The notes: generated by a model not told the origin, from the letters alone. A DNA stretch of 34,086 nucleotides from Candidatus Methanophagales archaeon (GCA_029241965.1 JAPWVK010000159.1:1-34086), one strand, 5' to 3'. Shown: positions 21,085 through 30,460, counted from the stretch's first letter. Program-made: numbers and translations.

Positions 21085-21714
21085 TCATGTCAATATGATT
21101 TCGCCCAATACCGCCCGGTTCATCAACACTAAATCGCCGGCATCTGCTATCCTATCGTTATGGTTCAAGTCCCACCGCCAATCTCCCGGTATTTCCCATA
21201 ACACCGCTCGGTTCATCAACACTAAATCGCCGGCATCTGCTGACTTCCCCTCATTGTTCAAATCGCCTACCAGCCAAAGCGATAGATTCGTGGTCTCATT
21301 GGCAGTTGCATTTACTTCAGTTGAGTTATCCCAATACCTTGTTTTCGAGGCGTTTACGTAATAATCGCCGGCATTAACGTTTGTAAAGTTGTAATAGCCC
21401 GTTCCGTTCGTGTGTGTTGAACTTACGACATTCATAGTGGTCGCGTTCGTCAAATTTACCGATACATTTGGCATCCCGATAGTAGTATTATTACTATATG
21501 TTATCTGCCCTGTTATAATTACGGGTGCGGGCAGCACCGTTACGTACTGTACTGCAGCAAACACGAGTGAGGGAAGCAGCGCTAATACCACTAAAATCAA
21601 TATGATCATCTCCTTCTTTCTATTACTCTGTTCCATCTTTTTAAATGCTCTTTTTTTGTTAGAATTTGCTTCAAAATCCAAAGCCGCACTAATCGCATTC
21701 ATTCTTCCCAGCAT
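21085..21714 (-). CDS. dockerin-containing secreted protein with a CarboxypepD_reg-like beta-sandwich domain
   Basis: The C-terminus carries a duplicated dockerin segment: GDLNNEGKSADAGDLVLMNRAVLWEI and WDLNHNDRIADAGDLVLMNRAVLGEI. The DNA duplication is visible at 21100-21250. The middle region GQITYSNNT...TNGTGYYNFTNVNAGDYYVNASK resembles a carboxypeptidase-regulatory-like fold. The internal Met at 21636 gives a cleaner signal peptide (MEQSNRKKEMIILILVVLALLPSLVFA). Confidence 0.75.
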   Translation of the reverse strand: MLGRMNAISAALDFEANSNKKRAFKKMEQSNRKKEMIILILVVLALLPSLVFAAVQYVTVLPAPVIITGQITYSNNTTIGMPNVSVNLTNATTMNVVSSTHTNGTGYYNFTNVNAGDYYVNASKTRYWDNSTEVNATANETTNLSLWLVGDLNNEGKSADAGDLVLMNRAVLWEIPGDWRWDLNHNDRIADAGDLVLMNRAVLGEIILT

Positions 21715-22136
21715 AGTTTAACCTTCTCCCCCTTTAAAAAGTTAGCATCGAAGAGGTCTAAACCATTGACCCTGCCTAAGATTGGCGGAACATCATTTGA
21801 ATCTGAAATTGCCACTGGTAACTCGAATTCTTTACCGTTGAGTCTAAATTTGAGTTGGTGAATGTAAACGATTAGTTTTGCGTACGGAACAATCCCTCTT
21901 GTGACATCTTCAATTAATAAGTCGCCGACATCTCTTGGTAGGACCGATATATCAGCACCAGTATCTGCTAATGCATTCTCTATTTTTATCCATTCTAAAG
22001 TATCGCCTTTTATTTCAACTTCAATCAGAGGTCTTAATACCTTCCCAAAAATTCCACTTTCTTTTTCCGTGTACTCAAAAACTTTCTCGGGCATTTGAAC
22101 ACCTAAGCTATTAAAATTCCTGCTGGTGGCTCCCAT
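21699..22136 (-). CDS. retropepsin-like (clan AA) aspartic protease
   Basis: 145 aa with an ALADTGADISVLP active-site motif and a C-terminal ILGRVNGLD flap/dimer-type segment. It is a full-length paralog of the truncated 6445..6696. Confidence 0.65.
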   Translation of the reverse strand: MGATSRNFNSLGVQMPEKVFEYTEKESGIFGKVLRPLIEVEIKGDTLEWIKIENALADTGADISVLPRDVGDLLIEDVTRGIVPYAKLIVYIHQLKFRLNGKEFELPVAISDSNDVPPILGRVNGLDLFDANFLKGEKVKLCWEE

Positions 22137-22258: not shown

Positions 22259-22343
22259 TTTTCATCACCCCATAATTTATTTCTTCTTTATTCTTTTTAT
22301 AATTTTCACTATTCTTCTTCTCGCTCAATCAAGCGTTATATTG

Positions 22344-23801
22344 TTATACCGCTTCTCCCAACACCGACACCGTGGATGTGTCCGTTCCCGACCCTTTCAG
22401 CTCGTATGCCAGATACAAGTCATTGTAAGTTCCTACGGATACTGTTACCCCTGTATCTTTATAGCTACCCCATGACTTTAGAGTAGTCCAGCTACTGACC
22501 GCCCAGGGGCTCGTGTCATCTACGGTTACATTACAGAAATGAACCGGATAACTCTCTATGGCTGAAGACGTATTTGCATCCCTGACGAAGCATGCTAGCG
22601 TTATTGTCTCCCCTACGGTGTAACTATTTTCGTCAGGAGGCAAATCCCATGTTACGTTTGACCAGCCCCACTTAACCACCGACTCATTCTGATAAGAGCT
22701 GTTAGAATTAGATGCATTGTCATAAGTTGTTTCGGTAATATTGTATTCTCCGTCCTCAGGGACGGACAAAGTAACGACAAAAGTTCCATTTGTGGCGTTT
22801 GTAGTTGAATTGACTATCTTTCCTTCGTAAGGCACTTTGTCTATTTTCTTGATGATTACAGGTTTATTATTCTCATCAAGGGCGACCAAAATTCTTCCAT
22901 CCGAAATCTTCTGGTAGATGTTTTCTATCCTTATAAGAGAGAATTTATTTATATACCCGTTGCCAATATTATCAGTGGTGGTAGAAATGTCGGAAGTCGA
23001 AATCAGGTTTAAAGTTCCCACGGGATTGAAGGAAGAGATGGAAGAGCTTCCGGGAATGGAAGAGATGGTTGTAGAATTCATAAGGCTGAAGATTTTCGAG
23101 CATGAATTGAAGAAGTCTAAGGAATTACAGAGGTTCATATTTGAGTCGTTGTCCGCAAAGAGCAAATTGACGCTGGCAGATGCTATTGAACTTGGGGCGA
23201 AAATGAAGGAAGGAATGCTTGAAGAGCTCAAAGAGAAGGGATTACTGTAGATGAGACTGGTTGTGGATGCAAATGAGCTGTTCGCGGGGATAATCGCTAA
23301 AGGTAAGGAATTACAGAGTTGGACGCTGGACATATTATTTTCAGATGAAGTTGAATTGTTCGCACCTTTCATATTGCTTGCCGAATTGGAGAAGAACAGG
23401 GATGAGATAAGGGAAAAGTCAGGATTTTCCCTGAGGGATTTTGATGTGTTCGTTGGCATCCTCAAGTTAAGAGTCGGATTTATCCCTCTGGAGCGGTTTT
23501 TAGCTAAGATTCCGGAGGCTAAGGAGTTGGCACCGCATTTAAAAGATGTCGAATATTTCGCATAAGCATTGAAACTTGATTGCCCAATCTGGACGCAAGA
23601 AAAAGCGTTCAAAAAACAATCTGTAGTCAAGGTGTTCTCAACTCTTGATTTGTTTTCGTTTTTATCCGAGACAGGCCCATAGCCCGCTAAAGAGGTTGAA
23701 GGATATTTTGGATTGACTGAAGTGTAAACCTTATGCTCTGGCGAAAACGTCAGAACTGTTTCGTATCTACTCAAATCCATAAATCTTATTTTTTGCTTCA
23801 T
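22344..23801 (-). CDS. orphan 3' fragment: decayed Hint unit (no Cys1, truncated block F/G) fused to a shortened copy of the giant protein's C-terminal domain; probably a remnant or silent cassette
   Basis: Its ATG overlaps the giant gene's stop (ATGA at 23798-23801). The N-terminus KQKIRFMDLSRYETVLTFSPEHKVY aligns with QKPIKYLEYDY...LLVSPEHKVY. The middle ~230 aa is a Ser-rich translation antisense to TA cassette c. The C-terminal ~190 aa aligns with the giant protein's C-terminus. The last ~100 nt are about 90% identical by eye to 23798-23895. Confidence 0.55.
   Translation of the reverse strand: MKQKIRFMDLSRYETVLTFSPEHKVYTSVNPKYPSTSLAGYGPVSDKNENKSRVENTLTTDCFLNAFSCVQIGQSSFNAYAKYSTSFKCGANSLASGILAKNRSRGINPTLNLRMPTNTSKSLRENPDFSLISSLFFSNSASNMKGANNSTSSENNMSSVQLCNSLPLAIIPANSSFASTTSLIYSNPFSLSSSSIPSFIFAPSSIASASVNLLFADNDSNMNLCNSLDFFNSCSKIFSLMNSTTISSIPGSSSISSFNPVGTLNLISTSDISTTTDNIGNGYINKFSLIRIENIYQKISDGRILVALDENNKPVIIKKIDKVPYEGKIVNSTTNATNGTFVVTLSVPEDGEYNITETTYDNASNSNSSYQNESVVKWGWSNVTWDLPPDENSYTVGETITLACFVRDANTSSAIESYPVHFCNVTVDDTSPWAVSSWTTLKSWGSYKDTGVTVSVGTYNDLYLAYELKGSGTDTSTVSVLGEAV
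22987..23250 (+). CDS. small antitoxin-like protein, cassette c (antisense inside 22344..23801)
   Basis: Starts MSEVEIRFKVPTGLKEEMEEL and ends ...GAKMKEGMLEELKEKGLL. Layout and length match the antitoxins of cassettes a and b. Its stop abuts the PIN start (TAG-ATG). An AT-rich TATA-like ATTTATTTATATA lies about 35-45 nt upstream. Confidence 0.6.
   Translation: MSEVEIRFKVPTGLKEEMEELPGMEEMVVEFIRLKIFEHELKKSKELQRFIFESLSAKSKLTLADAIELGAKMKEGMLEELKEKGLL
23251..23682 (+). pseudogene. PIN-domain (VapC-like) toxin, cassette c, interrupted by an in-frame TAA at 23563-23565
   Basis: Starts MRLVVDANELFAGII.... It reads ...APHLKDVEYFA-stop-ALKLDCPIWTQEKAF...SETGP, compared with cassette b ...SPDPNDVDFFALALKLNCPLWSEDKLL...SLISP. 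The stop replaces a Leu (TTA to TAA). Homology continues in frame to TAG at 23680-23682. Confidence 0.6.
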
Positions 23802-26800
23802 ACCGCTTCTCCCAACACCGACACCGTGGATGTGCCCGTTCCCGACCCTTTCAGCTCGTATGCCAGATACAAGTCTTTGTGTGTTCCTTTGGATACTCTT
23901 ACCCCTGTATCTTTATAGCTACCCCAAGATTTTAGACTAATCCAGCTACCAACAGCCCCGGGGCTCGTGTCATTTGCGGTTACGTTAAACTTCTCGTCAT
24001 TTATTATTGTTGACCAACCGTTCACCTCTTCTACCTTCAGCCAGATCTTGTATTCAGTCGAAGAAGAAGGATTGTAAATTGTAACTACTGGTGAGTTACT
24101 GGTCACATTTTGCGGGTTGCCGCTGCCGTCCGCATTATTGTGTGGGTCAACTACTGTGGCACCAGTTGCACCCGAGAAGTTAATGGAACTGATACTCTGC
24201 GAAGCAGTTTGATTTCTGATTTCAAGTGTCGTTGCGTATGACAACTCTATGGATGTATTGGCTTCATCATCCGCAGTGACGTTATAAAACAGCGTGGCAT
24301 TATCCGTGATATTACATTTTGGATAGTACCATCCTACTGCCACGCCTGATGTATCCCAATCCAGGACGGCATATCCGCTGCTATTCGTGTAATTCAGACC
24401 AAGGTATGTCACGGTAGAGTCAGTCTTGTTATAAAAACGAACCGGATAATTCTCTATGCCCGATGAGGTATTGACATCGCGGACAAGGCATGTTAGCGTT
24501 ATTATCGCACCTGATTCGTAACTACTTCCGCCGGAAGGCGAGCCCCACGTTACGTTTGACCAACCCATCTTAAACACCGATTGATTTTGATACGAGATAT
24601 TATAATTCGATGCGTTATCATACATCTCTACCGACACGTTGTATTTCCCCTTAGCAGCACTTGAATTTAGATAAAAACTCGCATTTACATACGAATTTGG
24701 TGTGTAAGCAGTATCCGACGACGAATTGATGGTCGCAGTAGCGTTGTATATCGTGACCGTGTAGTTCTTTGGATTATCCTCCGTGTACGAGAAGTTGACA
24801 TAAAACTGCTCGCCGCCCTTCTTGTAGATTGGAACGGAAGTTGTAGGCACGTCTATCGTGATAGTCGGTGATTGCGAATCTATGGTGAAGTTCGTACCGA
24901 GCCACGTCTCTGACGTCTCGCCCTCATCGTCTGTTGCCACGCAATGCAACGTATAGAGTCCGGGACTATAATTGGATGCGTTGAACGCTATATCGGCAAT
25001 CCCGCCAGCGGCATCCGCTTCGGTAAAAGTATTGTTTACTATCGAAATAAATGTCTGGTTCGGATAGCACAAAGTCAGATTATGAACCACTGTGCCGCCG
25101 TCCGGATCGGTCGCAACCCCAACACCAATATCGAATATACCGTCATAGCTACCATTCATATCATAGTCCTTTACACCACTGATATTGAAATACCTAATGT
25201 GCGGGACGGTAGGTGGATAGTGCACCAATCTGATGTCGTTTGTAAGCAGCGTTGAATTGCTCCAACTACCCGATGCGTTTGCTGCATACAGCTTCATCTG
25301 GTGCTGCATACCACTTTTAGAGTAGTCGAAAAATAACTTCGGCGTCCATGCCGCCTGCAAAAATGACGAGCCATCATTGGTACTCGTCCATGCAACGTTT
25401 GTTTGCGCAAACGATATGTTCATACCGCTCGTACCATCTACATACGCCAGGCGGTACTCATTGCTTGTAGCTGTCGGAGATCGGAAGTATATGTATCCAT
25501 GCGGTGTTGTGTTTACGTCAGAACCTATAACCCTGCTATTGTTCACACCAATCGTAAAGGTCACGAACGAACTGTTGTACGGCTCGTACGTGTAATCATC
25601 TACTGTTGTGCCAGTGTACGAAGTCAAGTAAGTATAATATGGACTTTCGAGTGGCTTACCGCCAGTGATGTTATACGAGTCGTTTAGGTAGTAAATATCA
25701 AGATTGTTCGATGCTCCCAGATCGGTTGCCTCGAAAGCGATATGTATTTTATAGTCCGAAGAACCTTTAATTGCTTCAGTGTCCCAGAACTTGACCAGAG
25801 CAGCACGGTATCCTGTTGAGCCCTGTTTATAGATGTCATAATATTTGCTAATCTCTTTCTGCATCCGCGTCCTATCTAAGTAATACATGTTCTCAAATAC
25901 AGTATTCTCAACCGTGCCATTCCAGTGCACATACGAGTGCGTGTCATTTACCTTTTGGATAGTAAGCCGGGAAGTGTTTTCATCCGCGCCCGCCCATTTC
26001 CAGACGTTGCCCTCTGTGATGGTGGCATTATCCTCAAAGTTCAAGCGCTGTATTGTAGCATTCCGGTTATCGGCACGTAGAATCTGCTCGTTGCATAAAG
26101 CCCATACCGCAGATTTGTTGTTGCTCGGAACACGGAGTGACCAGTTATAACTATCGAGCACCGAGTCCCAGAGCGTCCAGACGAGCGATACGCTGCTGTT
26201 ATTGAGTGTATGTGTAGCATCCGTAGTAACCAACCAGGTTACGTTGAATGCACCGGTCGAGTTCTCGTAAATCGTAGCCGGCTCCTGCGAGATGAGTTCA
26301 AATGTCGGACAGCCCGCCTGATTGTATGCATAATCGACGTCACCACCAAATCGAAACTCTAATGCGTGTTTGCCCGAAGTTAAAACCTTACTTGTTTCGT
26401 AGCTGGTTTCGTTACAGGAATAATTGTGTATGAATAAGGAATTGTTTCGCCATTGATAATCCAGTGTGCGATTGCCGCATTTCAGGGCAAGCAATTGCAG
26501 GTCATAGTTTGAGTTGCCGCACCAGACAGGCGTTGAGTTTTTACGCCGTATTAAAAGTATGCGGTTCGGGACGGTAACAGAGTAAATCTTGCCGTTATAA
26601 GGGACTTCTTCGATTTTTTTTACTGCTACGGGATTCTGTTCGGAATCGAGGAATACTAACTGTTTGTCGGGTAGCTCGTGGAGTTCCGAGATTTTTAGCA
26701 ATGAATAGGTATTTAAACCGTTCGGATTTATAGTATTAGTGATGACGGTTTCTTTTTCATTCACGGTCACAGGCATCGAGAAGTTATTTAAATACAGCAA

Positions 26801-29800
26801 GTTAGTTTTATTATTGGTGAGAGAAATGGCCGAAATAGTTGTTAAGGTTCCAGAGGATATTGGTATAGAGCTTGGTAGGGTTTCAGAAGAGAATTGGCAA
26901 TTGTTATTCTCAAGATTCCTGAGAAGAGAGCTGGAAGAAATAAGAGGGATCGAAGCGATAGTATCTAAATCAAAACTAACAGAGGAGCAAGCCAAAGAAT
27001 TAGCAGATGAAGTAAGTTTAGCGATAGCTAAAAGACTTCTTGAGAAGTGATTCGAGATGTTATTGGTAGTTGACGCTAATGTCGTATTCTCAGCACTAAT
27101 AAGAAGAGGCAAGCCATTAAGGGTATTTGAGTTGAACAAGCTTCTCATGAAATTTGAATTTATTGCACCAGAGTTCCTGTTCTTTGAGGTGGGTAAAAGA
27201 ATGGATAAAATACTCAAGCTCACAGATTTATCTAAAGAAGAGTTCATAACGGTTTTTTCATTCATTAAGAATGAACTCGAGCTAATTCCTCTTGAAACAT
27301 TTGAAGATAAAGTTGATGAAGCCAAGGAGAGATCACCACACTTGAAGGATATGCCATATGTTGCTTTATCCCTCAAATTCGATTGTAAGATTCTGTCTGG
27401 AGATAAAGGAATAAAGGAATGCTTGCCTGGTAGAGTCATCATACCATCTAAAGCCTTAAGAATTCTATTTGGGAGGACTGCACCATAAACCTTATGCTCA
27501 GGCGAAACCAGCAGTTGACTGCCATCTTCCAGAGTAAGCTCGAACATCGCATCCGAATAGTCGTATTCCAGATATTTAATCGGTTTCTGATTGCAAAAAA
27601 GTTTTGTGTGTTCTTTTGTAATTTGTGGTTTCCTTGTGGTTTCGTTATGCCGTTTCACCAGCACGATGTCGTTCGGGACGTCAACGTCATAAATCTTGCC
27701 GGTATAAGGGACTTCTTCGATTTTTTTTACTGCTACGGGATTCAGCTCGGAGTCAAGGAATACTAACTGTTTGTCTGATAGCTTGTCATAGAGTTCCGAT
27801 ATTTTTAGCAATGAATAAGTATTTAAATACAGCAAGCCAGTCTTATAATTAGGGGCGATAGAAATGTCAGAGTTAGTTGTTGAGGTTCCAGGATTGCTTA
27901 GAGGAGAGGTTGGTAAGCTAGAGCGAGAGATAGAGGAGCTAATATCGTGGGAGGAGAAGCGTAAATTACTCTCTCTGTTCATGGATGAGGTTATGAAAGA
28001 TGCTAAACAGTTGAGCGAAGACGAACTGGTTACACTTGGAAGAGAGATTAAGAAAGGCAGGTTTGAAAAGCTCAAGCAAAGGGGGTTTGTATGAGTGCGG
28101 TTAGTTGCTGACACAACCGAACTCTTCTCGTTCTTCAACGCTCGGTCAAAGGCAAGGGAGTTATCCATAATCCCTGAATTGGAATTACATTCCCCCTCCT
28201 TTTCTTTATATGAACTCAAAGAACATAAATCCAAGATTCTTACGAGTTTCTCGTTGACCGAGACACAGTTTCTATTGATAATGAAGTTGCTTAAGACCGT
28301 TGTAAAAGTTGCTAAAGAGGAAGAATACTCGGATTTTCTATCGGAGGCTAAGGAAATATCTCCAGACCCTAACGATGTAGATTTCTTTGCGTTGGCTCTG
28401 AAACTGAACTGTCCGCTTTGGTCAGAGGATAAGCTGCTAAAGGGGCAGTCTAAGGTTAAGGTACTCTCTACAAAAGATTTACTTGAACTTTTATCTCTCA
28501 TCAGCCCATAAACCTTATGCTCAGGCGAAACCAGCAGTTTACTGCCATCCGCCAGAGTAAGCTTGAACATCGCATCCGAATAGTCGTATTCCAGATATTT
28601 AATCGGTTTCTGCCATTCCTGCTCTCCCGTCTCCTGGTTTAAAGTCAGAACTTCTTCTTCTGGTTCTAAATCTTTGAACAGTTTCCAGCCTTCTTTTGTT
28701 AGAACCTCGGTTTCTTCGTCGTAACATTCGTACGGTTGGTTAGTCCAGGTCGTCCCGTTAACCGCGGTTATAGTCAAATCCGCAGTTCCTTCCGTCTCGA
28801 ACTTGACAGACCAGTTTCCACCTACTGCTGGATAAGACTGGACATTAATTATACTAATCGGATCAACAGCAACATACCAGGGTCTTGCCTCTGTAAATGT
28901 TTCTGAATCATAACTAATTTCCGCAGTACCTAAAGCGTACAAATAAGGCCACACAGGAGGAACTGCGTAAGAATAACTGACAGATGTTTTCTTGCCAATT
29001 AAATCTTTATTCCAGGTTATTGTCTTTGTATCGTCTTCCTGCATAACCGTAGCGGCATCCGTTGAATACACATCGAACTCAGCAGGCACAAATTCTTTTA
29101 ACGTTACGGATTCCGCATCAGTAAAGCATTCTACGTCAATCCTGACCTCAAACCTGTCCTGCAGTGTGGGGTCTATCTTGCTTTGTGTCGTTCTTATGAT
29201 GTCGAATTCATACTCCGGCTGAACCCGGAAATACGTATTGAAGAATACTTCAACGTTGTCAATTAAACCCGTGACTGAGATCGAGTGATTACCCTCTATT
29301 TCCGTTGGGTAATCCAGGTTATAAATGCCAGATTCGCTACTTGCGGTAATCGTGCCATCAGCGGTGGAATAAATCGTTTCCTCGTTATCGGGATTGTTTA
29401 CGGTTAAATAAAGATCGGCATTGCTGACTGAGTGCCCTGCTTTATCCAGGACAACGATAACGAATTCCACGGTTTCACCGGGTTTGTAGATGCTTTTTTT
29501 GGTGTTTACGGAAACAAGGCCCCACGGGAATTCGGATTCTAAAACGTAAACGTGCTCGTCCTTCACTAACTCCACACTTAATGTATATACGCCCACTCGG
29601 AATGCTCGTTCCTTAGGCAATTTAATTGCGAATTTGCCTTCGCCTTTTTTCGCTATTTCGGGCGCGATGTCTGTTAGTGCACCCGAAGAATCATAAACAA
29701 AAGTCTCTATCGTTTCGTTTTCTGTCACCCAGCGTTTCAATGCTTTTTGGGGTGCGCCAATAGCAGCTTCCTCACTTACAGTGCTAAGCATTTCCCGCGA

Positions 29801-30460
29801 TGCGTTTTCGGTAACATTTTCATTAAAAGTTTTCTGCGAAGCGTTTTTGATAAAACTTTTATTAAAAGTTTTATATTCAAACGAAAAAGTCGGTTCCTCA
29901 TCCAGGGAATAAGACTCTTTGTTTGCAATTAGTTTTGGCGGTTCAATCACGGATTCCGTAACATTAATATTACGTGATTCACCTGTTGATTCGTTAATCG
30001 TATAATTCAAACCGATGACGGAGGTATTATCAGTTGCATTTTCCGGTGTTTGTATCGTAACGCCCGAGGCATTACCTGTTGTATTATCCGTTGTATTTTC
30101 CGGTGTTTGTAACGTAACGCCCGAGGCATTACCTGTTGTACTATTATTAGTTGCAGTTTCAGGTGTTTGTATCGTAATGCCCGTGGCATTATCAGTTGTG
30201 TTATCAGTTACATTATCAGGTGATAGTATCGGATTTATCGGTGCCGTTACGTCCGTAATATTTTCTGACGGGGTATCATTAAGGTTAGTTACGTATGATG
30301 TAATGTTTTCAGGCAGCGTTGTGTTCTCGTTTTGTGTTGCACCAAAAGCGATTAAAGGCACGATAAGCAAAGCTATGACAATTGTAATGCGTGCGCTCTT
30401 CCAGTTTGTTTTTGCTCTTAGCATCTTTTCGCAGGTCAAGCTTCCTTTTCTATCATACAT
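23798..30460 (-). CDS. giant (2220 aa) secreted, sequon-rich surface protein interrupted by a composite Hint/intein region
   Basis: Single uninterrupted ORF. The N-terminal hydrophobic signal/anchor is ARITIVIALLIVPLIAFGA. It has three tandem ~19-aa repeats (GNASGVTxQTPENxTDNT) and very many N-x-S/T sequons. It is beta-rich throughout. The intein blocks lie at aa 579-1308. It is tightly packed with upstream genes: 3-nt gap, then an ATGA overlap. Confidence 0.85.
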   Translation of the reverse strand: MYDRKGSLTCEKMLRAKTNWKSARITIVIALLIVPLIAFGATQNENTTLPENITSYVTNLNDTPSENITDVTAPINPILSPDNVTDNTTDNATGITIQTPETATNNSTTGNASGVTLQTPENTTDNTTGNASGVTIQTPENATDNTSVIGLNYTINESTGESRNINVTESVIEPPKLIANKESYSLDEEPTFSFEYKTFNKSFIKNASQKTFNENVTENASREMLSTVSEEAAIGAPQKALKRWVTENETIETFVYDSSGALTDIAPEIAKKGEGKFAIKLPKERAFRVGVYTLSVELVKDEHVYVLESEFPWGLVSVNTKKSIYKPGETVEFVIVVLDKAGHSVSNADLYLTVNNPDNEETIYSTADGTITASSESGIYNLDYPTEIEGNHSISVTGLIDNVEVFFNTYFRVQPEYEFDIIRTTQSKIDPTLQDRFEVRIDVECFTDAESVTLKEFVPAEFDVYSTDAATVMQEDDTKTITWNKDLIGKKTSVSYSYAVPPVWPYLYALGTAEISYDSETFTEARPWYVAVDPISIINVQSYPAVGGNWSVKFETEGTADLTITAVNGTTWTNQPYECYDEETEVLTKEGWKLFKDLEPEEEVLTLNQETGEQEWQKPIKYLEYDYSDAMFKLTLADGSKLLVSPEHKVYGLMRDKSSSKSFVESTLTLDCPFSSLSSDQSGQFSFRANAKKSTSLGSGDISLASDRKSEYSSSLATFTTVLSNFIINRNCVSVNEKLVRILDLCSLSSYKEKEGECNSNSGIMDNSLAFDRALKNEKSSVVSATNRTHTNPLCLSFSNLPFLISLPSVTSSSSLNCLASFITSSMNRESNLRFSSHDISSSISRSSLPTSPLSNPGTSTTNSDISIAPNYKTGLLYLNTYSLLKISELYDKLSDKQLVFLDSELNPVAVKKIEEVPYTGKIYDVDVPNDIVLVKRHNETTRKPQITKEHTKLFCNQKPIKYLEYDYSDAMFELTLEDGSQLLVSPEHKVYGAVLPNRILKALDGMMTLPGKHSFIPLSPDRILQSNLRDKATYGISFKCGDLSLASSTLSSNVSRGISSSSFLMNEKTVMNSSLDKSVSLSILSILLPTSKNRNSGAINSNFMRSLFNSNTLNGLPLLISAENTTLASTTNNISNHFSRSLLAIAKLTSSANSLACSSVSFDLDTIASIPLISSSSLLRNLENNNCQFSSETLPSSIPISSGTLTTISAISLTNNKTNLLYLNNFSMPVTVNEKETVITNTINPNGLNTYSLLKISELHELPDKQLVFLDSEQNPVAVKKIEEVPYNGKIYSVTVPNRILLIRRKNSTPVWCGNSNYDLQLLALKCGNRTLDYQWRNNSLFIHNYSCNETSYETSKVLTSGKHALEFRFGGDVDYAYNQAGCPTFELISQEPATIYENSTGAFNVTWLVTTDATHTLNNSSVSLVWTLWDSVLDSYNWSLRVPSNNKSAVWALCNEQILRADNRNATIQRLNFEDNATITEGNVWKWAGADENTSRLTIQKVNDTHSYVHWNGTVENTVFENMYYLDRTRMQKEISKYYDIYKQGSTGYRAALVKFWDTEAIKGSSDYKIHIAFEATDLGASNNLDIYYLNDSYNITGGKPLESPYYTYLTSYTGTTVDDYTYEPYNSSFVTFTIGVNNSRVIGSDVNTTPHGYIYFRSPTATSNEYRLAYVDGTSGMNISFAQTNVAWTSTNDGSSFLQAAWTPKLFFDYSKSGMQHQMKLYAANASGSWSNSTLLTNDIRLVHYPPTVPHIRYFNISGVKDYDMNGSYDGIFDIGVGVATDPDGGTVVHNLTLCYPNQTFISIVNNTFTEADAAGGIADIAFNASNYSPGLYTLHCVATDDEGETSETWLGTNFTIDSQSPTITIDVPTTSVPIYKKGGEQFYVNFSYTEDNPKNYTVTIYNATATINSSSDTAYTPNSYVNASFYLNSSAAKGKYNVSVEMYDNASNYNISYQNQSVFKMGWSNVTWGSPSGGSSYESGAIITLTCLVRDVNTSSGIENYPVRFYNKTDSTVTYLGLNYTNSSGYAVLDWDTSGVAVGWYYPKCNITDNATLFYNVTADDEANTSIELSYATTLEIRNQTASQSISSINFSGATGATVVDPHNNADGSGNPQNVTSNSPVVTIYNPSSSTEYKIWLKVEEVNGWSTIINDEKFNVTANDTSPGAVGSWISLKSWGSYKDTGVRVSKGTHKDLYLAYELKGSGTGTSTVSVLGEAV
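26826..27050 (+). CDS. small antitoxin-like protein, cassette a (antisense inside the giant ORF)
   Basis: Starts MAEIVVKVPEDIGIELGRV and ends ...SKSKLTEEQAKELADEVSLAIAKRLLEK. The start is set at the internal Met (26826) by analogy with cassettes b and c. TATTTAAATA at 26785-26794 and a GGTGA SD-like motif precede it. It ends 6 nt before the PIN start. Confidence 0.65.
   Translation: MAEIVVKVPEDIGIELGRVSEENWQLLFSRFLRRELEEIRGIEAIVSKSKLTEEQAKELADEVSLAIAKRLLEK
27057..27488 (+). CDS. PIN-domain (VapC-like) toxin, cassette a
   Basis: 143 aa with a PIN acidic quartet layout: LLVVDANVVFSAL (Asp), FFEVGKR (Glu), SPHLKDMPYVALSL (Asp), KILSGDKGI (Asp). Its last codons overlap, antisense, the HKVYG block-B codons of Hint unit 2. 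Confidence 0.8.
   Translation: MLLVVDANVVFSALIRRGKPLRVFELNKLLMKFEFIAPEFLFFEVGKRMDKILKLTDLSKEEFITVFSFIKNELELIPLETFEDKVDEAKERSPHLKDMPYVALSLKFDCKILSGDKGIKECLPGRVIIPSKALRILFGRTAP
27864..28094 (+). CDS. small antitoxin-like protein, cassette b (antisense inside the giant ORF)
   Basis: Starts MSELVVEVPGLLRGEVGKLEREIEEL and ends ...QLSEDELVTLGREIKKGRFEKLKQRGFV. TATTTAAATA lies at 27820-27829, about 35 nt upstream. Its stop TGA directly abuts the GTG start of the PIN gene. Confidence 0.65.
   Translation: MSELVVEVPGLLRGEVGKLEREIEELISWEEKRKLLSLFMDEVMKDAKQLSEDELVTLGREIKKGRFEKLKQRGFV
28095..28511 (+). CDS. PIN-domain (VapC-like) toxin, cassette b (GTG start)
   Basis: 138 aa: RLVADTTELFSFF (Asp), SLYELKEHK (Glu), SPDPNDVDFFALAL (Asp), PLWSEDKLL (Asp). 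The layout matches cassette a although the sequence is divergent. Its 3' end overlaps, antisense, the HKVYG codons of Hint unit 1. Confidence 0.75.
   Translation: MRLVADTTELFSFFNARSKARELSIIPELELHSPSFSLYELKEHKSKILTSFSLTETQFLLIMKLLKTVVKVAKEEEYSDFLSEAKEISPDPNDVDFFALALKLNCPLWSEDKLLKGQSKVKVLSTKDLLELLSLISP
30039..30215 (-). repeat. three tandem 57-60-nt coding repeats in the giant protein N-terminus
   Basis: The plus-strand unit is TTTTCCGGTGTTTGTATCGTAACGCCCGAGGCATTACCTGTTGTATTATCCGTTGTA, repeated at about 30039, 30096 and 30156. It encodes T(D/G)NxxG(I/V)TxQTPExxTxNx(T/S) repeats rich in sequons. Confidence 0.8.

Follow-up and report, generated by a model that had tools for sequence, protein, structure and literature searches.

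The gene at 23798..30460 (minus strand) in a 34,086-nucleotide (nt) stretch of DNA from Candidatus Methanophagales archaeon (GCA_029241965.1, JAPWVK010000159.1:1-34086; the whole stretch is called the window below) raises the question of how one uninterrupted open reading frame (ORF) of 2220 codons can accommodate two tandem Hint units, each enclosing a toxin-antitoxin (TA) operon on the opposite strand. The ORF encodes a secreted or surface protein with a signal-like N-terminus and an MG2 domain. A preliminary description of the locus had proposed that only the outermost Cys and the final Asn|Ser are competent for splicing, and that both units would have to leave the precursor as one element of ~730 residues. 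The analysis below indicates that the region is probably one composite intein with two antisense TA cassettes, situated within a surface-protein gene and joined internally by the scar of a crossover. We document the anatomy and boundaries of the element, the pattern of its family, the selection on its open frame and the conservation of its inner junction in a second sample.

The boundaries of the composite intein are C579 and N1316 (738 amino acids (aa), 26513..28726, minus strand), with S1317 (26510-26512, minus strand) as the +1 residue; they are based on the end motif of the family, intein-less homologues of the host protein, an alignment with the KlbA intein and profile matches. The codon of C579 occupies 28724-28726, and the residues before it are variable extein across hosts. 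Relatives were gathered by protein search and by DNA-level scans for N-halves in genome, metagenome and viral contigs, and more than 70 of their C-halves share a conserved Hint end, ...V(R/K)R(N)G(K)x(V/I)W[CS]GN, with Ser or Thr as the next residue. ThyX-like exteins begin directly after that end in classical members of this family (GN|THELVRHR..., GN|SVIEHAVASF...), as do other conserved-looking extein sequences. Since more than 70 relatives end in W[CS]GN|[ST], the 'KRHN' of the first unit (N939) and the 'RRKN' of the second (N1308) both correspond to the loop before the last strand. The earlier assignment of VKRHN as the canonical end of unit 1 is thereby withdrawn: its Asn belongs to the family loop RR(N)G, the true end is W[CS]GN|[ST], and the terminal strand is absent from that unit. 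Competence for splicing appears confined, as had been proposed, to the outermost Cys and the last Asn|Ser, but the latter site is N1316|S1317, eight residues beyond the N1308|S1309 originally named.

The other three sources of evidence agree with these limits. The intein-less host homologues P0026, P0031, P0035 and P0042 have no counterpart of STPVWCGN, are collinear with the host across the site with a length difference of 2 residues, and show TWSNDNEDNDLQL where the window host has TWTNQPYE|SNYDLQL. The end of the Mja KlbA intein (2jmz), GKNEGFAVSN|C, aligns to RRKNSTPVWCGN|S. The Pfam profile Intein_splicing gives one match to the 2220-aa ORF, on aa 596-930 (37.1 bits, cut-off 35.8), the NCBIfam profile intein_Nterm gives a single match to the composite, at aa 579-651 (47.9 bits, cut-off 24.5), and tblastn detects the second N-half only from residue 39.

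Within these boundaries (all parts on the minus strand) the N-terminal splicing half 1 (aa 579-652, 28505..28726) carries block A (CYDEETEVLT...) and block B (SPEH), and has a predicted local distance difference test score (pLDDT) of ~90 in an AlphaFold2 (AF2) model of the composite. C-half 1, which we call type 1 (aa 877-939, 27644..27832; pLDDT 82-92), contains block F and ends in the loop ...VKRHN, with neither a terminal strand nor a catalytic Asn. It runs into a dead inner junction (aa 940-957, ETTRKPQITKEHTKLFCN, 27590..27643), a remnant of the pre-terminal loop that holds the tandem repeat GAAACCACAAG/GAAACCACAAA (27643-27622). The following remnant of N-half 2 (aa 958-993, 27482..27589; pLDDT <50) comprises N-half residues 39-74 only, without Cys1 or block A. 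C-half 2, or type 2 (aa 1249-1316, 26513..26716; pLDDT 53-79), contributes the sole terminal strand, STPVWCGN, and the terminal Asn1316; its end motif is identical in the orthologues P0009, P0014 and P0001. The N-side flanks of the two units (27483-27589 and 28506-28612) are equal at 103 of 107 nt (96%) and the C-side flanks at 154 of 181 nt (85%), with sub-blocks at 87-90%. Several elements of the preliminary description reappear in this anatomy, namely VKRHN939 followed by the non-nucleophilic E940, the return of homology at QKPIKY958 in the 2220-aa ORF, and the 11-nt direct repeat at the junction; a re-examination of the boundary between the units for a nucleophile found none.

By sequence the element has the features expected of an intein, these being Cys1 (C579), block B S-P-E-H at aa 645-648, in which Ser replaces Thr, and N1316|S1317 (VWCGN|S). 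A C-terminal Asn followed by a nucleophile is not found at N939|E940, and N1308|S1309 is a loop position. There is no homing endonuclease in the window, as the linkers contain no Pfam domain, consist of 34-36% Ser+Leu and have a pLDDT of ~30; these Ser/Leu-rich linkers, which are read through the antisense cargo, are predicted to be disordered. An absent or non-conserved +1 nucleophile, the mark of a bacterial intein-like (BIL) domain, does not describe the element either, the +1 residue in these sequences being Ser here and in 36 of 41 TA-type units. With no terminal strand in unit 1, and with a unit 2 whose N-half begins only at residue 39, the two are read as one composite intein, C579-N1316. 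The inner junction, judged by its residues, is unable to splice, so that any splicing must take out both units together; joint excision, as first suggested, is thus retained, with the length corrected from ~730 to 738 residues.

Each unit encloses a TA cassette encoded on the plus strand. In cassette 1, the putative antitoxin 1 (AT1, 76 aa, 27864..28094), which belongs to no Pfam family, is followed by the PIN_2 toxin PIN1 (138 aa, 28095..28511; Pfam PIN_2, E=2.7e-20) with the acidic tetrad D6/E40/D94/D112, and the TAA stop of the toxin gene (28509-28511) lies within Hint codons V650-Y651. Cassette 2 has the same layout, with the putative antitoxin 2 (AT2, 74 aa, 26826..27050) and PIN2 (143 aa, 27057..27488; Pfam PIN_2, E=8.4e-22; tetrad D6/E44/D98/D116), whose TAA stop (27486-27488) lies within Hint codons V991-Y992. 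The antitoxin ORFs abut the toxin genes at a distance of 0-6 nt, and AT1 falls in an antitoxin cluster common to 38 cargo ORFs. The TATA-box-like motif TTTAAATA is found at 27822..27829 (plus strand), 35-42 nt upstream of the AT1 ATG, where it reads Y-L-N in the Hint frame, and at 26787..26794 (plus strand), 32-39 nt upstream of the ATG at 26826. The plus strand of 22301-28800 contains exactly three such motifs, each 32-42 nt before an antitoxin ATG and followed by a Shine-Dalgarno-like sequence. NCBIfam and PADLOC scans of the TA proteins of the window gave no match, and the antitoxins are also without a Pfam family. PIN1 and PIN2 share 29% and AT1 and AT2 26% aa identity, and the cargo nucleotides have no alignable similarity; the contrast drawn at the outset between near-identical flanks (96% and 85% nt) and highly divergent cargo is therefore borne out.

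The origin of the tandem can be approached through two related contigs. The JGI contig L084 has the same host site with a single type-1 C-half, ending ...DVDVPNDIVLVRRHNETTRLHEINSETEDKNLVEICEICGYPTAIWCGN|SNYDLQ.... It is ~93% identical to the window at the nt level from the TATA motif to the exact end of the first repeat copy, beyond which it continues with its own loop and then AIWCGN|S. At this point the window has 10 additional bases (GAAACCACAA), after which homology to the loop (ATTACA...) returns, most clearly in contig L083. The start of unit 2 had been regarded as a decayed block A with a loss of about 20 residues, ETTRKPQITKEHTKLF being its degenerate form; the alignment behind this is marginal (its score was reached by 11 of 1000 shuffles, p ~0.01), and L084 leads us to reject it, as HN-ETTR is native loop and the homology ends at the first repeat copy. 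Unit 2 begins instead at N-half residue 39, after the stretch of pre-terminal loop from unit 1. When the 10 nt are removed in silico the frame shifts and a stop follows after 61 codons, which means that everything after the duplication, from the N-half 2 remnant through cassette 2 and C-half 2 to a C-extein of 900 residues, owes its frame to these 10 nt.

Contig L083, which comes from an independent marine-sediment metagenome, shares both the tandem and its junction with the window (...VKQHKETTREPQITQDYTKLFCKQKPMKY...), with Lys at position 939 and a damaged block F in C-half 1 (GKIYDVDV changed to GTSYDVDA). Nucleotide identity between the window and L083 is highest in the cargo and the second N-half (PIN1 97.1%, AT1 96.5%, N-half 2 remnant 93.5%) and lower in C-half 1 (91.0%), the junction (90.7%) and N-half 1 (88.4%). 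The ratio of nonsynonymous to synonymous substitution rates (dN/dS) rises from 0.18 in PIN1 and 0.26 in N-half 1 to 0.53 in C-half 1 and 0.68 in the remnant of N-half 2, values that are derived from small counts (each segment has 5 to 17 substitutions); all 5 differences in the junction are nonsynonymous, and dS itself is 0.32 in N-half 1 and 0.07-0.13 in the remaining segments. This pattern suggests that the inner parts (C-half 1, the N-half 2 remnant and the junction) are under relaxed constraint.

Other alleles at the same host site (P0009, P0014, P0001, L086) have the type-2 C-half end. The nearest cargo of PIN2/AT2 is that of L009/L017 (49-55% aa; AT2 is 55% identical to the L009 antitoxin) and the nearest cargo of PIN1 that of L029/L004 (43-44%), compared with 29% between PIN1 and PIN2. 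The two toxins belong to different lineages, each nearer to cargo in other phyla, which argues that they did not diverge in place. The simplest history, and the most likely one on these comparisons, is a single illegitimate crossover between two same-site alleles with different cargo. Allele A, with cargo 1 and a type-1 C-half, would have been broken in its pre-terminal loop, and allele B at N-half residue 39, contributing cargo 2, the type-2 C-half and the terminal strand, with the 10-nt duplication at the joint keeping the frame. One crossover between a type-1 and a type-2 allele would explain the asymmetry of 96% and 85% between the flanks.

The window element is one of a family. TA-type units, which were located at the DNA level independently of gene calls, number 41 on genome contigs and 35 on metagenome contigs, mainly from DPANN, Altiarchaeota and ANME-1/Methanosarcinales and a few from bacterial-labelled bins. 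Each has an opposite-strand two-gene operon between N-half and C-half, in a stretch with 23-36% Ser+Leu. The cargo is PIN_2 with an antitoxin in 25 units, ParE/RelE-like with an antitoxin in 9, and DUF5615 (a PIN-like domain) with DUF433 in 8-11; DUF2283 with a PBECR3-like ORF and a pair of small membrane proteins occur once each. TA-type units retain Cys1 (31/31), SxxH (39/43) and WSGN|S in frame (36/41), and the D-E-D-D tetrad is invariant among the 25 cargo PINs. Classical relatives have an in-frame LAGLIDADG_3 domain in the same slot. No TA-type units were found on viral contigs, where all 57 classifiable units are classical LAGLIDADG ones.

The frame that reads through this cargo is open in 40 of the 41 genome units and 32 of the 35 metagenome units (72/76). 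Synonymous resampling with the TA proteins held fixed gave a mean of 3.1 stops per unit and a joint P of ~1e-62 for the 40 open genome units; judged by this comparison, the read-through Hint frame is under selection across the family. In 69 of 91 cases the cargo ORF is in the register in which the third codon positions of both strands coincide. Both window cassettes have the toxin stop within the Hint V-Y codons (GTT TAT), an offset shared exactly by 39 of 83 units, and the motif TTTAWATA, at the border between cargo and C-half, occurs in 25 of 43 units (35 of 43 if up to one mismatch is allowed), where it is read as Y-[LIK]-N or [LV]-[FY]-K-S-F in the Hint frame. A promoter-like motif and the toxin stop are thus embedded in conserved Hint codons.

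The family takes in-frame inserts at three sites, of which one follows CYDNETEILT, one follows ...HKVY and the third lies in the loop that precedes the last strand. Those in the pre-terminal loop (from VLVRR to xxWSGN|S) range from ~30 to 434 residues and include whole TA cassettes (L024_6874, L080_2734, L027). C-halves that seemed to be truncated after VLVRR were considered as dead ends; when extended in frame, most of them proved to have an insertion in the loop and WSGN|S after it. Partial Hint remnants also accompany multiple cassettes in units of L001, L009, L022, L034, L028 and P0001.

Some further observations on the family may be recorded here. Whole antisense ParE-type cassettes are present at both non-canonical sites (L011 2209-2980; L024 6874-7700; L080 2734-3600; L027 6238-7600), and cassettes at the CYDNETEILT and pre-terminal loop sites imply that one intein may carry cargo at up to three positions. 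Units in L008, L012, L014, L016, L006, L003 and L019 share one host insertion site, ...TAVNGTTWTNQPYE|C ... GN|SNYDLQFLEIKCG..., in orthologous surface proteins of Altiarchaeota, Aenigmarchaeota, a Hydrothermota bin and uncultured archaea. The cargo at this site differs (ParE-like in L008 and L012, DUF5615/DUF433 in L016, two small membrane proteins in L014), which shows that cassettes are exchanged across phyla at a fixed site. The intein unit of P0003 has ~3 N-extein residues before Cys1 and is flanked by genes for an IS200-type Y1 transposase and an rve integrase (L002 64-501, 1979-2824); it may be a displaced or mobilised copy. Lastly, the Hint frame itself contains tRNA-like sequences 82-90 nt long, which have the same orientation and leave the frame open (L024 2498-2584; L029 5884-5966; L034 5863-5952; L022 3794-3875, also in protein P0004; L080 1731-1815, 5883-5967 and 9240-9323). 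ARAGORN assigns them to Leu-CAA or Ile-GAT/AAT, and they score 31-54 bits with the Rfam tRNA model (gathering score 29). Some sit in inserts that interrupt block A (CYDNETEILT | about 140 aa | KCYxxxWK[LY]F) and others in the pre-terminal loop; they could be real tRNA genes, remnants of integration sites or RNA processing signals.

Taken together, these features suggest how the window element would work. The host mRNA would be translated straight through both antisense cassettes as linker, N-half 1 and one C-half would assemble with the single terminal strand, and the 738 residues would be excised to leave ...TNQPYE-SNYDLQ.... The two TA operons would be transcribed from their own promoters, against the host gene; we infer that they are expressed and stabilise the element as addiction modules, in which role they would penalise its loss. 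For P0003, a homologue with a single unit, AF2 predicts with confidence that a strand, IWSG-N352, follows the KRHN loop; confidence collapses directly beyond it, and all Foldseek matches to this model are inteins, Hint domains or BIL domains. In the window element the precursor would release all 738 residues, most likely through pairing of N-half 1 with C-half 2.

This account has to be weighed against different readings of the same tandem. We give next to no credence to two independent inteins lying side by side and each splicing itself; the superficial presence of two Hint units and the 'HN' motif in unit 1 recommend it, but unit 1 has no terminal strand or catalytic Asn and has Lys at position 939 in L083, unit 2 has no block A or nucleophile, and no extein residue separates the units. 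A better case can be made for pairing within the same excised element of N-half 1 with C-half 1, with only STPVWCGN supplied from the far end and aa 940-1308 looped out of the pre-terminal loop as a 369-residue insertion. The pre-terminal loop of relatives takes in-frame insertions of comparable kind (~30 to 434 residues, whole cassettes included), C-half 1 is translated first, and its AF2 pLDDT is the higher of the two, in a model whose alignment is shallow and ambiguous. C-half 1 has, on the other side, lost conserved block F residues in L083 and evolves with a dN/dS of 0.53 against 0.26 for N-half 1. The comparative data favour C-half 2 as the partner, whereas the AF2 confidence and the habit of loop insertion allow C-half 1; we regard pairing with C-half 1 as somewhat unlikely. 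As to history, an old tandem duplication, in which continuing gene conversion preserves the likeness of the Hint flanks and the cargo has diverged or been exchanged, would fit flanks 96% and 85% alike around unalignable cargo and the mosaic C-halves of relatives, and the dS of 0.32 in N-half 1, compared with 0.07-0.13 elsewhere against L083, hints at recombination. The PIN1 and PIN2 lineages are, however, distinct and each nearer to cargo of other phyla, the two C-halves match two allele types that are found singly at the same site (L084 versus L086/P0009), and conversion leaves the near-identity of the N-side flank alone unexplained. This history is unlikely in our judgement; the swapping of cargo that had been suggested for the locus agrees with the separate PIN lineages, but gene conversion is not needed, as a crossover between alleles would suffice.

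The composite-intein reading must also be set against the possibility that nothing is spliced. The locus could be a decaying pseudogene or an insertion-tolerant surface protein, with a frame that is open by chance and TA operons as the only living part. Given the TA proteins, an open frame has P ~0.2-0.4 per cassette at this locus, the third unit is degenerate with a truncated PIN3, stops or truncations occur in L003 and L083, and the TA cargo is the most conserved segment in the comparison with L083 (97% nt). We nevertheless find this improbable, since Cys1, SPEH, N1316 and S1317 are intact in an uninterrupted 2220-codon ORF, the 10-nt duplication, common to L083, is needed to hold 2.0 kilobases (kb) of intein and 2.7 kb of C-extein in frame, the dN/dS of N-half 1 is 0.26, and frame and catalytic residues are conserved family-wide. 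Still less probable, in our view, is a BIL-like autoproteolytic Hint module, whose cleavage at one end or both would leave the exteins of the surface protein unligated. Secreted and variable surface proteins are typical hosts of BIL domains, and the hosts here are of this kind (LamG, DUF2341, MG2); Foldseek also matches BIL domains (6y75, 2lwy), and the penultimate residue is Gly, not His. Against it stand an essentially invariant +1 Ser/Thr (WSGN|S in 36/41, Ser/Thr in classical members), the fact that members of this Hint clade reside in ThyX and RNR-like enzymes, for which ligation is necessary, and the collinearity of intein-less host homologues across the site.

There are also points that weigh against our own interpretation of a composite, splicing intein. 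The open frame of the window locus alone has P ~0.19-0.37 per cassette given the TA proteins, so that the open-frame evidence is weak at this locus and draws its strength from the family-wide pattern, and the dN/dS contrasts come from the small counts given above. The crossover model is a parsimony argument, and parental alleles with exactly these cargoes are not among the observed alleles. Unit 1 of L083 is itself truncated upstream and has in-frame stops, and in L003 (2032-2253), from Ca. Methanophagaceae and nearest among the genome relatives, the fifth codon of block A (CYDA*TEILT) is TAA instead of the GAA of relatives, indicating either a pseudogenised copy or a sequencing error. The truncation in L083, the stop in L003 and the dead third unit of the window imply that decay is common in the lineage. 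The AF2 model of the composite, built on a shallow alignment, is more confident for C-half 1 (82-92) than for C-half 2 (53-79) and low in the terminal strand. Finally, a host of the Sec-type exported kind poses the problem of the place in which an intein of 738 residues could fold and be spliced.

The genomic setting of the host gene is as follows. The N-extein of the host protein is 93% identical to P0024 of Candidatus Methanophagaceae (ANME-1), its closest relative, and genes for cohesin and CarboxypepD_reg surface proteins lie beside the host gene. An index of 153 billion genes has no called-gene record for PIN1, PIN2 or the 2220-aa ORF (28095-28511, 27057-27488 and 23798-30460). Immediately downstream of the host gene, a truncated paralogue, whose C-terminus repeats that of the 2220-aa ORF (...LYLAYELKGSGT.TSTVSVLGEAV), contains a third, degenerate Hint-TA unit (22344..23801, minus strand), which accounts for the third PIN/antitoxin pair noted in the preliminary description. 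Its N-half remnant is ...SPEHKVYT (block B only) and its C-half stops at ...YEGKI, with no Cys1 and no terminal Asn; on the plus strand it has a TATA-like motif (22948-22955), antitoxin 3 (22987-23250) and PIN3 (23251-23565), which has a premature stop after codon 104. From its sequence the unit looks like a decaying copy. Separately, a 145-aa ORF at 21699-22136 (minus strand), between surface-protein genes, has a weak RVP (retroviral-type aspartyl protease) match with E=0.003, below the cut-off.

Homing endonucleases are considered the means by which inteins persist, and the present family suggests that a whole intein clade persists through addiction modules instead. Splicing would render the insertion of TA genes harmless to the host, and the TA genes would make loss of the element costly. 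There is a substantial chance that the TA-carrying family deserves its own category; that such 'TA-inteins' form an undescribed class of composite selfish element, in which the homing endonuclease has been swapped for exchangeable opposite-strand TA operons and arrays are spliced as a unit, is a proposal to which we give even chances. If it is true, splicing of multi-cassette arrays as a unit would explain the persistence of frame-keeping mutations such as the 10-nt duplication. We found no account of TA genes inside inteins in the literature, most subscription journals being outside the coverage, so that this is absence of evidence only. The family is also a large natural case of antisense dual coding, with more than 70 units of about 200-500 codons each and selection measurable on both strands. 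Gene callers chose the long Hint ORF in L001 and L002 and passed over the antisense TA genes within it. TA genes enclosed in such inteins are therefore mostly hidden from protein databases, and censuses of TA and defence genes in DPANN and ANME have probably been undercounted. For intein engineering, it is of practical interest that the family accommodates in-frame inserts hundreds of residues long at three positions. The dead junction shows a possible route to multi-cargo arrays, for which the residues to mutate are now corrected to C579, N1316 and S1317.

The closest known counterparts of the window element are classical LAGLIDADG inteins of the same Hint clade (L038-L082 and the 57 viral-contig units), found in ThyX-like, RNR-like and other exteins. 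These share with it the N-half CYDEETEVLT...SPEH/TxxH (37-66% identity to the window N-half), the C-half ...VRRNGKPxWCGN|S/T and the slot after ...HKVY. They have in-frame LAGLIDADG_3 domains and reside in conserved enzymes, whereas the window element has two antisense TA cassettes and a surface-protein host. The closest solved structure by sequence (E=0.0027), and also a Foldseek match, is the KlbA mini-intein of Methanocaldococcus jannaschii (2jmz/2jnq), which has no endonuclease and whose C-terminal layout ...IAGKNEGFAVSN|C parallels ...IRRKNSTPVWCGN|S in the window. KlbA is a compact mini-intein of 168 residues with Ala1; it has no cargo, unlike the window element with its 738 residues, Cys1 and two antisense operons.

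The cassettes themselves resemble type II VapBC-like modules in having a small upstream ORF that abuts a PIN toxin with a D-E-D-D tetrad, and resemble the VapBC-like modules of mobile elements in being tied to a selfish element and exchanged as a cassette. They differ in lying wholly within, and antisense to, an intein frame, with a stop and a TATA-like motif in conserved Hint codons. BIL/Hint domains of secreted or polymorphic-toxin proteins, which are associated with toxin and immunity-type genes, are comparable in that a Hint fold is placed in a large variable surface protein, and BIL structures are among the fold matches. In BIL domains the +1 nucleophile or the ligation itself is usually missing, and the toxins are C-terminal domains encoded on the same strand; the +1 Ser of the window element is conserved, and its toxins are separate genes on the opposite strand. 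Group I and II introns with ORFs, and the 'fractured genes' of split inteins with a free-standing endonuclease gene, are self-removing elements that shelter autonomous genes. The window element would likewise shelter autonomous genes in a self-removing element and so make its insertion phenotypically silent. Unlike that of introns, however, its removal would take place at the protein level, so that the cargo DNA must stay translatable on the other strand, which imposes a dual-coding constraint.

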